Shown here: positions 34,785 through 46,729 of the stretch, piece by piece
Layout of the letters: the number at the start of each line of letters is the position of its first letter
Numbering within the stretch: the stretch's first letter is position 1
Source of the DNA: Bacillota bacterium
Lineage (GTDB): Bacteria > Bacillota > Limnochordia > DTU087
Length of the DNA: 64,000 nt
Assembly (NCBI GenBank): GCA_012519025.1
Contig: JAAYQZ010000052.1
Location: 341 to 64,340, forward strand
Direction: 5' to 3'
Made by a program: the position numbers and the translations under genes
Notes under the pieces: generated by a model
The model's input: only the letters and a program-made list of their open reading frames with translations
Database searches by the model: none
What the model was told of the DNA's origin: nothing

Positions 34785-34864
34785 AGTAACAAACGTAGTG
34801 TGTTACTTATCACAATCATGTTGCGTCAATTAATATGACGTTGATATAAACGGGAAGGGGGTGA

Positions 34865-34910
34865 AGCGGCTTAGCTGTGCGTTGTTAAGTGTGCGCGGCT
34901 TAAAGTCGCT
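34865..34910 (+). promoter_or_regulatory. Stem-loop between the SD and ATG of rrf2
   Basis: AGCGGCTT/AAGTCGCT outer stem and AGCTGTGCG/TGCGCGGCT inner stem. Confidence 0.7.
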
Positions 34911-34916
34911 AATCTC

Positions 34917-35357
34917 ATGGAAATAACTAAAAAGGCTGAGTATGCTGTAACTATTTTGATCGATCTGGCCACTCAACCGGAAGATTGTTATGTTACAGCA
35001 CGGGAAATTGCAGATAGACAGGGTATACCAAGAACATTCGTGCCACAGATCATTTCAATTTTAAGTAAAGCAGGTTGGGTAGAGGGGATGCGGGGTCCCG
35101 GTGGTGGTGTCCGCGCTATCACAGATCTCCATGAACTCTCAGTACTGGACATTATCGAGACCGTAGAGGGCCCCATTGCTATTACCCGATGTTTAATGGA
35201 TGATACTCCGCCATGCGAGAATCGTCCTCACTGTCCGTTAAGAGGAGTATGGATCAGGGCCCAAGATGCTATGCTTGAGGTTTTGAAAGGAACTACAGTT
35301 GTTGAATTGGTGGAAATTAAGCAGCAGCTTGTCAGCCAAACTAAGATTACAGCCTAG
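34917..35357 (+). CDS. Rrf2 family regulator with three Fe-S-type cysteines
   Basis: MEITKKAEYA, RGPGGG, IIETVEG and C-x7-C-x5-C. Confidence 0.93.
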   Translation: MEITKKAEYAVTILIDLATQPEDCYVTAREIADRQGIPRTFVPQIISILSKAGWVEGMRGPGGGVRAITDLHELSVLDIIETVEGPIAITRCLMDDTPPCENRPHCPLRGVWIRAQDAMLEVLKGTTVVELVEIKQQLVSQTKITA

Positions 35358-35548
35358 TGAAACTTTGTGCGACTCTTGTAGATGGAGCATTTGCCCTCCC
35401 GCCAATATATGCATAAGTCACAGCGGCTATCGTCATCGTCTACACTACTATTGAGCCAAGATATGCCGTATCCTTGAGCATCTGAGACAGGTGTATACTC
35501 AGAGCAGTGGGATGCGATGCGGTACAGCTTAACTGCTTCATTGCTCAT
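35354..35548 (-). CDS. Small 4-Cys hypothetical protein, 64 aa
   Basis: Strong GGAGGTG RBS; IASHCSEY...CDLC..W...KC. Confidence 0.75.
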   Translation of the reverse strand: MSNEAVKLYRIASHCSEYTPVSDAQGYGISWLNSSVDDDDSRCDLCIYWREGKCSIYKSRTKFH

Positions 35549-35647
35549 CTGGGCTCACCTCCAAACCTAATAATATTTTACCCAAAGACGATAAAAATAC
35601 CCTTTCATCGAAACTCGATGTAAGGGTATTCCGCAAAAGTATGTTCT

Positions 35648-35821
35648 TCAGTCTTCCTGCCATAGGGAAGCAAATTTAGGCAGCGGCTTCTTCCTAAAGT
35701 CAAAGGCAAGCCTGCGTTTGGCTTTGTAACATAATACTCCTTGGTTGTGGTAGCCGCCAAAAAATTCACAAGTCAGACAGCGACTTGGGCTGATTTGTAT
35801 ACCCCGCTTAGGACAGGTCAT
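35648..35821 (-). CDS. Small 4-Cys basic hypothetical protein, 57 aa
   Basis: GGGGGTG RBS before ATG 35821; MTCPKR...CLTC...LC. Confidence 0.65.
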   Translation of the reverse strand: MTCPKRGIQISPSRCLTCEFFGGYHNQGVLCYKAKRRLAFDFRKKPLPKFASLWQED

Positions 35822-35935
35822 ATTGAACACCCCCCAGACGGTTGCAGCAATTTTGTGTAAAGATATTGCATGATTACAAAGTATAGGGACATCTATCACC
35901 CACCTATGTGTTGATTTGTCCCGTGAACCTTCTGT

Positions 35936-35963
35936 ATTATATCACTGCCTTTTACAGAGTCAA
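35936..35963 (-). promoter_or_regulatory. sigmaA promoter for the small Cys-protein genes
   Basis: Minus strand TTGACT-16nt-TATAAT with TG extension. Confidence 0.65.
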
Positions 35964-36072
35964 GCTCAAAGGGATTTCCAATGGTTCCGGAATCATAGAG
36001 GACATATAAAATGTGTAAAGAATTAAGCGATACAGAGCGTTTTATTGATTAATTTCTCTGTTTTGGAGGTGA

Positions 36073-36104
36073 AAGGTCGTATAACATCGAAATGGTGCGA
36101 CCTT
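36073..36104 (+). promoter_or_regulatory. Stem-loop between the SD and ATG of cinA
   Basis: AAGGTCGTAT/GTGCGACCTT stem plus CAT/ATG closing a CGAA loop. Confidence 0.75.
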
Positions 36105-36107
36105 AAA

Positions 36108-37361
36108 ATGATTGCAGAACTGATTATGGTGGGCACAGAACTGCTTTTGGGGGAAATTGTCGACACAAATTCCAACTACCTCGCTGAAGAGCTGGCGGCC
36201 ATTGGAGTTGATCTTTTTTATGTGACTAAAGTTGGGGATAACCAACAGCGAATTGCAAGGCTCATCCAAAACGCTTTTACAAGAGCTGACATAGTCATCA
36301 CTTCAGGAGGTCTTGGCCCTACCTCAGATGATTTGACCAAAGAGGCTGCCGCAGAAGCCCTTGGCCGGGATTTGGTGCTTTGCCCCAAGGCTTTAAAATC
36401 AATCGAAGCCCGCTTTCAACGCATGCATGCGGCAATGTCACAAAATAATAAACGCCAGGCCTATCTGCCTGAAGGTTCCCAAGCGCTGCACAACCCCAAG
36501 GGAACTGCCCCCGGTGTGCTTGTGGAGACGCAAGATGGGAAAGCACTGATTATGCTCCCTGGCGTACCGGTTGAGCTTAAGGCAATTATGCGAGATTCGG
36601 TAATACCATACATCGCAAACAAGGCTGCAGGAGCCAATGGGATCATTTTTTCGCAAATCCTCAGATTCTATGGTCTTGGTGAATCTAGGCTGGAGGAGCT
36701 TATCAAAGATTTGTTGGTGACACAAAGCAACCCCACTATCGCGCCTTATGCCGGCAGTGGTGAGGTGAGAGTGCGGATCACGGCTAAAGCCGATACTCAA
36801 GAAACAGCTGAAAGTCTTATTGCCCCTGTAGAAAAGGAATTGCTGGGGCGGATCGGCGAGTATTTCTATGGTTATGGAGAGGCAGGAATGGAAACAGTGG
36901 TGGGCAACCTGCTGATCAACAAAGGACAGACAATCGCAGTAGCGGAATCTTGTACCGGTGGATTGATTTCAAATTTGTTGACTAATGTACCGGGCAGTTC
37001 AGATTATTACATGCAGGGAGCCGTTACCTACAGCAACTTGGCTAAAGAAACGGTTTTGGGGGTGGATCCCCGTCTGATCGAAGACTATGGGGCGGTCAGT
37101 GAACAAACTGCCAAAGCTATGGCTTTAGGGGTAAGACAGTGGGCCGGCACTGATATAGGGCTTGGTATTACAGGGATAGCAGGACCCGGAGGCGGAACAT
37201 CCGCAAAGCCTGTGGGGTTAGTATATTTCAGTTTAAGTTCATCGGAAAAAGAAATTGTAGACAAACGGGTGTTCAGCGGCGATCGTCTGCAAATAAAGGA
37301 GCGAGCCGCTTTGGCAGCATTGGATCTGGTGCGGCGGCATCTGCTTTCACTGGGCAATTAG
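36108..37361 (+). CDS. cinA: Competence/damage-inducible protein CinA (MoCF domain + PncC)
   Basis: AELIMVGTELLLG, GGLGPT.DDLT, LPGVP.E, AESCTGG and TGIAGP motifs. Confidence 0.96.
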   Translation: MIAELIMVGTELLLGEIVDTNSNYLAEELAAIGVDLFYVTKVGDNQQRIARLIQNAFTRADIVITSGGLGPTSDDLTKEAAAEALGRDLVLCPKALKSIEARFQRMHAAMSQNNKRQAYLPEGSQALHNPKGTAPGVLVETQDGKALIMLPGVPVELKAIMRDSVIPYIANKAAGANGIIFSQILRFYGLGESRLEELIKDLLVTQSNPTIAPYAGSGEVRVRITAKADTQETAESLIAPVEKELLGRIGEYFYGYGEAGMETVVGNLLINKGQTIAVAESCTGGLISNLLTNVPGSSDYYMQGAVTYSNLAKETVLGVDPRLIEDYGAVSEQTAKAMALGVRQWAGTDIGLGITGIAGPGGGTSAKPVGLVYFSLSSSEKEIVDKRVFSGDRLQIKERAALAALDLVRRHLLSLGN

Positions 37362-43606: not shown

Positions 43607-43628
43607 ATATAGGGTCTTGAAAATCTAA

Positions 43629-43776
43629 TATTCCGGTAAGTAAGGCTACCATAGGGATATGAGTTGCTGCCGCAAAGTAGTGGAGACACTATGAGCTGGT
43701 TAGCAGGCCATGTCGAAAACAAGGCATGATCTAATGCAATATCACCGCCCTATGGAGCTAAAGCCCAAACGGTGAC
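43629..43776 (+). ncRNA. M-box (ykoK) Mg2+ riboswitch
   Basis: CGGTAAGTAAGGCT..CCATAGGG, TGCTGCC, GTCGA..AAGG, TAATGCA and CCCTATGG-AGCTAAAGC..AACGG match M-box landmarks; upstream of an Mg ATPase. Confidence 0.88.
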
Positions 43777-43811
43777 ATGCTGCAAACAGTTGCAGCTGTG
43801 TATGATGGATT

Positions 43812-43871: not shown

Positions 43872-43970
43872 ATGAAAATCGGCAGTATGCAAATGTACAT
43901 TAAAAAGGCAGCAGGAAAGCGAAAGCAATTGTCTTGTCTAAAGAAAAAAACCATGCCCTTGTTGCTTTGA
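43872..43970 (+). CDS. Putative 32-aa Lys-rich small ORF
   Basis: AGAAAGGGTG RBS; [32 protein letters not shown]; stops 10 nt before the mgtA SD. Confidence 0.4.
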
Positions 43971-43993
43971 GGCAAAATATGGAGGTTGCACCT

Positions 43994-46729
43994 ATGAATG
44001 AAAAGAGGCAGTACTTCAGCCGCACCAAAAACAAAAAGACTAACGCTCGTTTAGTACACAGTGAAACTATCACAAGGCGTTTGCACGACATTGCCCGCCT
44101 TTCAACAGATGAGGTTATAAGAACCTTCAACAGTTCCAGACACGGGTTAACAGAAGAACTTGTGCATGCAAACCGAGAAAAATACGGTGATAACATAGTC
44201 ACAAGCGCAAGCGAAGAATCTTTTTTCCAACGCCTCGTAAAAGCCTTTATCAATCCTTTTACTATTATTTTAATCGCTTTGGCGGCCATTTCCTTTGTTA
44301 CCGATATTCAACTGGCTCCTGTTGGTGAAAAAGATCCCATGACCGTTGTTATCATAGTGGTTTTGGTGATCATAAGCGGCTCACTGCAGCTCATCCAAGA
44401 GACGCGATCAGGGAATGCGGCAGCTAAACTTCAGGATATGATCAAAATCACTACTGCAGTCGAGCGGATCGAGACAGGTACAAAAGAAATAGATCTTGAT
44501 CAGGTTGTTGTAGGAGATCGCATTCACTTGGCAGCGGGAGATATGATTCCGGCGGATCTGCGGATTCTAGAAGCCAAAGACCTTTTTATCAGTCAATCGG
44601 CCTTAACAGGCGAAAGTGAACCCGTTGAGAAGTTTAATAAACCGATTGAAGAGGTCCGCCACGTCTCTTTGACCGATATTGCCAATCTGGCTTTTATGGG
44701 CACCAACGTTGTAAGTGGCGCGGCAGTGGGGGTTGTGGTGGCAGCCGGCAACAATACTGTCTTTGGCGATATGGCACAGGATATTGTGGATGTGGATGTG
44801 CGAACCAGTTTCGAGGAAGGTGTCCACTCTGTGTCCTGGGTTTTGATTCGGTTCATGTTGGCCATGGTGCCTGTGGTTTTACTTATCAACGGGTTCACCA
44901 AAGGCAACTGGCTTGAGGCATCTTTGTTTGCTATTTCTGTGGCAGTGGGATTAACACCGGAAATGCTCCCCATGATTGTCACTGCCAACCTTGCCAAGGG
45001 AGCGCTTGCCATGTCGAGGAAAAAAACTATTATCAAAAGCCTCAGTTCCATTCAAAACCTGGGCTCCATGGATATTTTGTGTACCGATAAGACAGGCACT
45101 CTCACACAGGATCGAGTGGTTTTGGAATATTACCTTGATGTTCATGGTGAAGCCAGTGTAAGGGTCTTGCGCCACGGATTTTTAAATAGTTACTTCCAAA
45201 CGGGACTAAAAAACTTGATCGATAAAGCTATTATCGATCGAGTTGCTGAGCAATCCAGCAAAGAATCCTCTCTTAAGGGTTTGAAGGAATTTTACCAAAA
45301 GATAGATGAAATTCCTTTTGATTTTGAACGCAGGCGCATGAGTGTTGTAATAGAAGACCAAACAGGCAAAACGCAGATGATTACCAAAGGTGCAGTTGAG
45401 GAGATTATGTCCATTTGTTCGTTTGTGGAATACGGTGGCGAAGTGGGTCCATTTACTGAGGAGATCGAAACCGATATCAACGACACTGTCGGACGCTTAA
45501 ATGATCAGGGTATGCGGGTCATAGCAGTAGCCCAGAAAACGAACCCACCCCCAGTCGGTGAATTTTCCGTTAAAGACGAAAACGACATGGTATTGATCGG
45601 CTATTTAGCTTTCTTAGATCCCCCAAAAGAGACAACATATGAAGCCATTCGCACCCTGCACGATTACGGTGTTGAGGTAAAAGTACTGACAGGGGATAAC
45701 GAGCGAGTTACAAAGGCCATTTGCCGACAAGTTGGTTTACCTGTGGGCAATCTTCTAGAGGGCTCCCAAGTTGAGCTTATGGACGATGATGAGCTGAGCA
45801 AGATCGTTGAAGAAACAACTGTCTTTGCTAAGCTTTCCCCTCAGCAAAAGGCTAGGGTGGTGACCTGCCTAAGAGATAACGGTCACTCAGTAGGTTTTTT
45901 AGGCGACGGGATAAACGATGCTGCCGCTATGCGCACTTCGGATGTGGGTGTTTCCGTAAACAACGCTGTAGATATTGCTAAGGAATCAGCAGATGTAATT
46001 CTTTTGGAAAAAGATCTACGGGTCCTCGGTGAAGGCATCATTGAGGGGCGAAAAACCTACGGCAATATGATCAAATACATCAAAATGACCGCCAGCTCAA
46101 ATTTCGGAAATGTTTTCTCAGTCCTAATTGCCAGTGCGTTTTTACCATTTTTGCCCATGGCCGCAATTCATCTGGTCCTGCTCAATCTAATTTACGATAT
46201 CTCCTGCATATCTTTGCCATGGGACAACGTTGATGAAGAATTCTTGCGTGTACCGAGAAAATGGGATGCTTCATCAATTGCCAGTTTCATGCTTTGGATT
46301 GGGCCAACAAGTTCGGTTTTTGATATTACTACTTTCGTCTTAATGTATTATGTTATTGCTCCGTCAGCAGTCGGGGGCAAATTGTATCATCAGCTGACAG
46401 ACCCTGCCTTAAAGGCAATGTTTGTCTCGGTTTTCCAAGCCGGATGGTTTGTGGAGTCCATGTGGTCGCAGACTCTGGTAATACACATGATCCGCACACC
46501 TAAGATCCCGTTTATTCAAAGTAGTGCTTCTTTGCCCGTTGCGGCTCTTACTTTCACCGGGATTCTAGTGCTTACATTGATCCCTTTTACTGGATTCGGT
46601 GCACAAATAGGTCTTGCGGCACTGCCCCCGGTATATTTTGCTTGGTTGGCTGTGACTGTTTTACTTTACATGGGTTTGGCCCAGTGGTTCAAAAACATCT
46701 ATGTCAGGAGGTATGGGGAGCTGCTTTGA
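43994..46729 (+). CDS. mgtA: Mg2+-importing P-type ATPase
   Basis: [33 protein letters not shown] and NLIYD motifs; ATG 43994 after GGAGGT. Confidence 0.96.

Follow-up and report, generated by a model that had tools for sequence, protein, structure and literature searches.

A probable split ribosome-binding site at cinA, and the same layout in other genes of a Bacillota lineage

The cinA gene of an uncultured digester bacterium of the Bacillota carries a strong Shine-Dalgarno (SD) sequence that is separated from its start codon by a stable hairpin. We consider it probable that this is a split (noncontiguous) ribosome-binding site of the type described for genes 38 and 25 of bacteriophage T4, that the same device serves about 20 genes of the genome, and that it has arisen repeatedly. 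The evidence presented here comprises the anatomy of the layout, its conservation and covariation among relatives, its enrichment over shuffled sequences, and its repeated origin. The window, by which we mean the whole stretch of 64,000 nucleotides that was analysed (G000:C144), comes from an assembly of 2.4 Mb in 165 contigs.

The SD of cinA, GGAGGTGA, was read directly on the forward strand at positions 36065-36072, where it matches the complement of the 16S rRNA 3' tail over 8 nt. Directly 3' of it, positions 36073-36104 hold a 32-nt hairpin with the letters AAGGTCGTAT-AA-CAT-CGAA-ATG-GTGCGACCTT; an AAA spacer (36105-36107) then leads to the start, MIAELIMVGTEL, whose ATG lies at 36108 and opens a coding sequence of 417 amino acids plus stop (36108-37361) with MoCF_biosynth, CinA_KH and CinA domains. 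The first-pass annotation had proposed this SD, stem-loop and start from the letters alone, and RNAfold returned exactly the proposed structure: a 10-bp stem that includes two G-U pairs, an AA bulge, a 3-bp stem and a CGAA loop. Folded alone, the segment from SD to start reached -13.2 kcal/mol (z = -4.57), a stability equalled by 0 of 300 shuffles, and both the SD and the AUG are unpaired in its minimum-energy fold; a 71-nt piece reached -19.3 kcal/mol (z = -3.18; 1 of 200 shuffles equally stable), with a weak outer helix that takes up two of the five GGAGG bases. The distance from the last G of GGAGG to the ATG is 38 nt, and looping out the hairpin leaves 3 + 3 = 6 unpaired nucleotides (a + b = 6, with a on the SD side and b on the start side), in agreement with the 6-nt spacer originally put forward.

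The position of the start codon was examined from several sides. No ATG, GTG or TTG begins within 36073-36083, 3' of the SD, nor 4-13 nt after it, the sole GTG nearby (36069-36071) lying inside the SD itself; the earlier observation that this SD has no canonical start at a normal distance thus holds. ATG 36108 has no SD of its own 3-13 nt upstream. When the protein is read from ATG 36108, the MoCF_biosynth match starts at residue 5 (profile position 2), as compared with residue 26 if the frame is read from the TTG at 36045, and this N-terminus aligned across all 14 orthologues. The frame is open in this genome from 36045 to ATG 36108, 21 codons further upstream, and the corresponding N-terminal extension is not conserved among orthologues.

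Downstream of cinA lie recA, recX and rny. In the 750-nt gap between rrf2 and cinA, Rfam gave nothing at E <= 1, and no ORF of 90 or more amino acids with a Pfam domain was found. The minus strand of the gap bears a near-consensus, promoter-like TTGACT-16-TATAAT with a TG (11/12, 35963 to 35936) and, about 150 nt downstream of it, a terminator-like hairpin with a T-run (35787-35769); the pair (window 35760-35963) suggests a short transcript. Elsewhere in the window, an M-box (magnesium) riboswitch scoring 94.9 bits was found at 43625-43783, upstream of a P-type cation ATPase at 43934-46726.

The window contains a second instance of the layout, which the first-pass annotation had paired with cinA and which was confirmed. 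The SD of rrf2, AAGGGGGTGA, occupies 34855-34864 on the forward strand, a 10-nt match with one G-U wobble; it is followed by a hairpin at 34865-34910, an AATCTC spacer at 34911-34916, and the ATG at 34917, which begins a coding sequence of 146 amino acids plus stop (34917-35357) with an Rrf2 Pfam match over residues 3-133 (profile positions 1-131). The rrf2 leader folds at -28.2 kcal/mol (z = -2.92), and in this fold an outer 5-bp helix also pairs GGGGU with AUCUC, so that part of the SD can pair.

In order to follow the cinA layout across relatives, the 14 genomes of the order in our collection, all of which possess cinA, were compared. None of the 14 has an SD core, even one of 4 nt, at 3-13 nt before the cinA start, and all 14 have a far purine-rich SD (GGAGGTGA or AAGGAGAG) 38-61 nt upstream of it with intervening structure, as the recurrence claimed for the lineage had implied. 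That structure is a single hairpin in 13 of the 14; the remaining leader (L013) forms two hairpins, with an alternative closing stem GGTGCG/CGCACC. The outer stems differ between species, reading AAGGTCG/CGACCTT, GGGTCACT/AGTGACCC, GGGCTACC/GGTAGTCC and GGCGCAG/CTGTGCT, and even hairpins of the same genus resemble each other about as much as shuffles do (L001-L002, 0.55 against 0.51 +/- 0.03; L001-L003, 0.45 against 0.45).

Pairing has been kept through this turnover. In the eight leaders that could be aligned by covariance model, 90% of cells are paired, as against 25-45% with slid partners; three pairs have changed on both sides, and the covariation score is 0.325 against 0.168 for shuffled alignments, with 0 of 500 shuffles as high. 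The covariance model was built from the five cinA leaders of genus g6, and it retrieved only these eight nearest leaders and not L001-L004, L013 or L014. RNAalifold on MAFFT alignments returned no or wrong structures for the cinA, ddl and floA leaders, as indels shift the arms out of register. Of the 13 cinA leaders that were scored, seven have a stop codon in frame between SD and start, which excludes an upstream start in those seven. The hairpins of three cinA leaders (L005, L008 and L010) contain GGAGG or GGGAG in their 3' half, at 15-16 nt from the start.

Outside the order, an SD core stands at 3-13 nt in 109 of 171 cinA loci, the remainder having weaker or other purine motifs. None of the 171 showed a hairpin-split site on reading, and a scripted scan flagged one: L145, from a Clostridium sp. 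MAG, which at about 1440-1503 has GGGGG, a 15-bp hairpin, ATTTTAATT and then ATG. With its T-rich tail, this element can equally be read as the terminator of the upstream gene.

Other identities for the hairpins were sought. An intrinsic terminator or attenuator at cinA was rejected, the tail of the stem being AAA-AUG and no forward-strand terminator having been detected there; a T-run tail follows the stem in none of the 21 split genes described below. A repeat element of the REP or MITE-like kind was likewise rejected, since each of the 21 hairpins matches only itself, with one 9-nt chance match among them. Rfam searches gave nothing at the gathering score in the window except the M-box and a tRNA, nothing at E <= 1 in 35300-36200, and nothing at E <= 0.1 at 19 other loci.

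The frequency of the layout was then counted over the whole genome. Genes were called by simple ORF rules of our own and not by a trained gene finder, giving 2054 ORF-genes of at least 100 amino acids (2004 in a later version of the pipeline). This genome has no assembled 16S 3' end, and that of a member of the same family (G006) was used, which reads GGAUCACCUCCUUUCU; another pattern match for such an end (L409) was rejected as not rRNA. A canonical SD was defined as a match of at least 5 nt to AAGGAGGTGAT, the exact complement of that tail; the aligned spacing of canonical SDs peaks at 7-8 nt. Candidates were genes without a canonical SD at any early start and with an orphan SD 20-70 nt upstream of the 5'-proximal start, and a candidate was counted when a single hairpin of -12 kcal/mol or lower begins at most 6 nt after the SD and ends 2-9 nt before the start. 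A looser hairpin criterion, which did not separate real starts from decoys (15 vs 8.7 and 18 vs 10.0), had been replaced by this strict one.

With expected counts drawn from dinucleotide shuffles, 19 of 82 candidates with an SD of at least 7 nt carried the layout where 3.67 were expected (z = 8.7), and 21 of 167 with an SD of at least 6 nt where 7.03 were expected (z = 5.7). Decoy starts lying over 25 codons into an ORF gave 4 of 44 (expected 3.11, z = 0.56) and 12 of 172 (expected 8.77, z = 1.18) at the same two SD lengths. The count against shuffled controls for which the first-pass annotation had called therefore bears out a recurring layout, as do the orthologues and the further genes found blind, the presumed role of the hairpin being in initiation.

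The 21 genes with the layout are cinA, rrf2 and 19 others: an FtsX-type permease, ddl, a solute-binding protein, a MazG-like protein, an MFS transporter, an amidohydrolase, transaldolase, a HemN-like enzyme, an MBL-fold protein, a PTS EIIC, a GNAT protein, an aldehyde dehydrogenase, a metalloenzyme-family protein, floA, gnd, ilvD, argR, an aminotransferase and one protein without a family. All but one of these 19 have Pfam domains, most of the matches beginning within residues 1-9. No functional theme linking the split genes was found. In 16 of the 21 genes a stop codon in frame interrupts the stretch from SD to start; the SD matches of the 21 are longer than those of canonical genes (mean 7.67 nt, 48% of at least 8 nt, against 6.55 nt and 15%). 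The strongest split site is that of floA, with an SD of 10 nt in this genome.

Only for G000, which was scanned as a whole genome, is enrichment over shuffles shown. Three relatives, each sampled in part, showed none: G005 gave two matches among 522 genes (expected 3.03), G007 two among 164 (expected 1.14) and G012 two among 289 (expected 1.35). The class-level outgroups G034, G018 and G040 gave 0 of 266 (expected 0.72), 0 of 87 (expected 0.03) and 1 of 387 (expected 1.29), and the cinA neighbourhoods of other lineages 2 of 503 (expected 1.9). Comparison of G000 with the pooled outgroups (21/2004 against 3/1243) gives a Fisher p of 0.0099, a value to be read with the kinship of the genomes, which makes them non-independent, and with the crudeness of the gene calls; against the other ingroup samples (6/975) no difference was seen (p = 0.31). 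On the minus strand of contig C15 of G005, two further SD-hairpin-start genes were observed, at 65112-65475 and 82798-83722, one of which opens with GGAGAGAAGGCGCC, like cinA leaders.

The layout reaches to different depths in different genes. For floA it is present in 12 of 12 members of family f1, with SDs of 10-11 nt, and in neither of two members of family f2, one of which has an ordinary SD and the other no SD core by script. Likewise, ddl has it in 12 of 12 in f1 and 0 of 2 in f2, and rrf2 in 12 of 12 in f1, no f2 orthologue having been found. All eight ilvD orthologues found have it, one of them from f2, with seven reaching -9 kcal/mol; the ilvD leaders share 14 pairs, four of them compensatory. 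In gnd the layout is confined to genus g1 (three genomes) and g3 (one), nine others having no hairpin and an SD-like purine run just before the start, and in argR to genus g1 (three genomes), nine others with readable leaders having an ordinary site. Thus the layout has been gained repeatedly, its gains falling at the depth of the order, the family, a genus group and a single genus.

The younger cases show how such sites came about. Split and unsplit gnd leaders have an upstream 'aactag' in common, and in the unsplit ones an ordinary SD stands at the homologous place; the shared motif shows the far SD in split leaders to be the very one that relatives employ directly. Relatives of argR without the hairpin also have an ordinary SD at the homologous place. 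Since relatives that lack the layout have ordinary sites, hairpins have several times been inserted 3' of an SD that was already working with its start, and were retained thereafter. In 64 instances from seven genes the total spacing from SD to start ranges over 28-61 nt, and the number of unpaired nucleotides, a + b, has its mode at 9 and falls within 8-11 in 46 of the 64.

We favour a split site because of this anatomy, its conservation and the T4 precedent; ribosomes would use the far SD, and the hairpin would be required. In the proposed mechanism, the strong SD GGAGGUGA would pair with the 16S 3' tail, and the hairpin would begin at the 3' edge of the resulting SD:anti-SD duplex, that is after GGAGGUGA, with a of about 3-4 nt. 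The 32-nt cinA hairpin would remain folded and be looped out on the 30S platform, leaving the AUG about 6 unpaired nucleotides from the SD (8-11 in most relatives) and within reach of the P site, so that an intact hairpin would be needed for efficient initiation, as in T4 genes 38 and 25. Such sites originated through insertion of an unrelated palindromic sequence between an existing SD and start, repeatedly, in this Bacillota family. Several points speak against a split site or complicate it: the width of the helix makes the effective spacing greater than a + b, towards the long end of the known working range; SD-like runs occur within some 3' arms; the rrf2 SD can be partly paired; and the partial samples of relatives were not enriched.

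A more ambitious version of this proposal strikes us as doubtful. It would make the split site a recurrent, evolvable device of the family, with hairpins possibly stacked on the SD duplex, placing about 1% of genes (cinA, rrf2, floA, ilvD, ddl, gnd, argR and others) under shared RNA-structure control, for example by temperature or a helicase, and permitted by some lineage-specific property of initiation. With respect to such a property, an S1-like protein that falls short of the rpsA cut-off was found in all 41 relatives, and bS21 in 40 of these 41; no lineage-specific loss was seen for either across the class, and no obvious loss of a ribosomal part therefore explains the tolerance of the lineage. 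The gene for bS21, rpsU (G000:C135:2786-2950), lies about 1.5 kb upstream of floA (G000:C135:4428-5435), and the two are near each other in several relatives too.

It is unlikely, in our judgement, that the hairpin is chiefly a brake or sensor, which would lower or gate translation for low expression or in answer to temperature, a helicase or an RNA-binding protein. Stability is temperature-sensitive, with energies of about -14 to -26 kcal/mol at 37 C and of -9 to -18 at 55 C; an SD-like run is hidden in some 3' arms, and part of the rrf2 SD can pair. Melting of the hairpin, on the other hand, would leave 28-61 nt between SD and start and should not activate initiation, and the lack of conservation of loops and stems between genes and species makes a common sequence-specific binder unlikely. 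RNA thermometers and SD-sequestering hairpins resemble the present sites in that the stability of a hairpin in the initiation region would set translation, but they pair the SD or the AUG, whereas here both lie outside the stem in most folds, so that melting should switch translation off rather than on. For cinA an SD-sequestering thermometer was rejected on the ground that SD and AUG are unpaired in the minimum-energy fold of the segment from SD to start. Sequestration of a proximal site is an alternative for those leaders with an SD-like run in the 3' arm, namely the three such cinA leaders and the ddl leaders of genus g6. In the latter (L310, L312, L313, L316 and L317), GGGGT stands in the 3' arm 7-8 nt before GTG, and the hairpin may also hide a proximal SD-like site.

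SD-like stabilisers distant from start codons exist in Bacillus, the cryIIIA STAB-SD being an example, and the elements described here could be 5' mRNA stabilisers, in which a 30S subunit would be parked on a STAB-SD-like site, the stem-loop would block a 5' exonuclease, and translation would start independently of an SD at the unstructured A/U-rich tail. The tails after the stem are indeed A/U-rich and unpaired, and no SD lies 3' of the hairpin. A stabiliser, however, needs neither a small fixed a + b nor a hairpin abutting the SD, yet a + b falls within 8-11 in 46 of the 64 instances while hairpin length varies; for gnd and argR, relatives show the far SD to be the ancestral, working one; and initiation is SD-dependent as a rule in this genome, 1558 of 2004 called genes having an SD of 5 nt or more at 3-13 nt. 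The best forward-strand promoter match, moreover, lies about 160 nt upstream of cinA, so that the element is not obviously at a 5' end. Taken together, these points render a stabiliser improbable.

We regard it as very unlikely that the hairpins are tolerated insertion debris without a role of their own, in genes whose expression is simply poor. That they are unrelated in sequence, were gained at different times and occur in genes with no common function would suit such debris, but the pairing persists across the order with compensatory change and complete sequence turnover, the 19 cases observed stand against 3.7 expected, and housekeeping genes such as ddl, ilvD and gnd are among them. Hardly credible, finally, is a start at a non-canonical or upstream codon near the SD (ATA 36081, GTG 36069, or TTG 36045 or 36063) with the ribosome reading through the hairpin: the frame is open from 36045 in this genome, but neither ATA 36081 nor TTG 36045 has an SD of its own, no SD precedes the TTG codons, and the in-frame stops in 7 of 13 cinA leaders and 16 of 21 split genes, the unconserved extension and the Pfam domain beginning at residue 5 from the ATG all argue against it.

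In the literature searched, hairpin-bridged SD and start sites have so far been treated as rare curiosities, with two T4 genes as examples and thrS and rpmE as related cases. With at least seven genes in 64 natural variants, gains that are dated and sister genes that have an ordinary site, the present lineage provides a comparative data set that bears on how much structure the 30S subunit tolerates between SD and P site, on the spacing rule, and on how such sites arise. Annotation is affected as well: gene finders that require a near SD may miscall such starts, and the cinA frame, open for 21 codons upstream of the ATG, is a case where they could.

Among known systems, noncontiguous initiation regions are called rare (PMC3936740, PMC1805508, PMC7297116), and in the full-text literature searched, subscription journals lying outside it, no report was found of a bacterial lineage with many conserved SD-hairpin-start genes. 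In E. coli thrS and rpmE (PMC3936740, PMC7297116), a stable hairpin that splits the ribosome-binding region is accommodated by the 30S subunit without unfolding. That hairpin serves a repressor protein as its operator and stands 5' of the SD, separating it from an AU-rich enhancer; here, in contrast, the hairpin lies between SD and start codon, and no binder is indicated. The closest parallel is with T4, where the hairpin cuts the spacing between SD and start from 22 to 5 nt in gene 38 and from 27 to 11 nt in gene 25 (Nivinskas et al. 1999; Malys and Nivinskas 2009, via PMC3014915), and destabilising mutations lower initiation (PMC3014915). The likeness is twofold: an SD that is too far away (22 and 27 nt in T4, 38 nt here) comes to a workable spacing once the hairpin is looped out (5 and 11 nt in T4, 6 nt here and about 9 in relatives), and the structure is kept in close relatives only, so that its origin can be dated. 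The T4 cases, however, belong to a phage, whereas the present ones occupy a bacterial chromosome and about 20 unrelated genes of one genome; the hairpins here are also longer (20-57 nt) and have undergone complete sequence turnover and repeated gain. We therefore class cinA as a probable further case of the known split-site type, what is new being the multi-gene, repeatedly gained chromosomal pattern to which it belongs.
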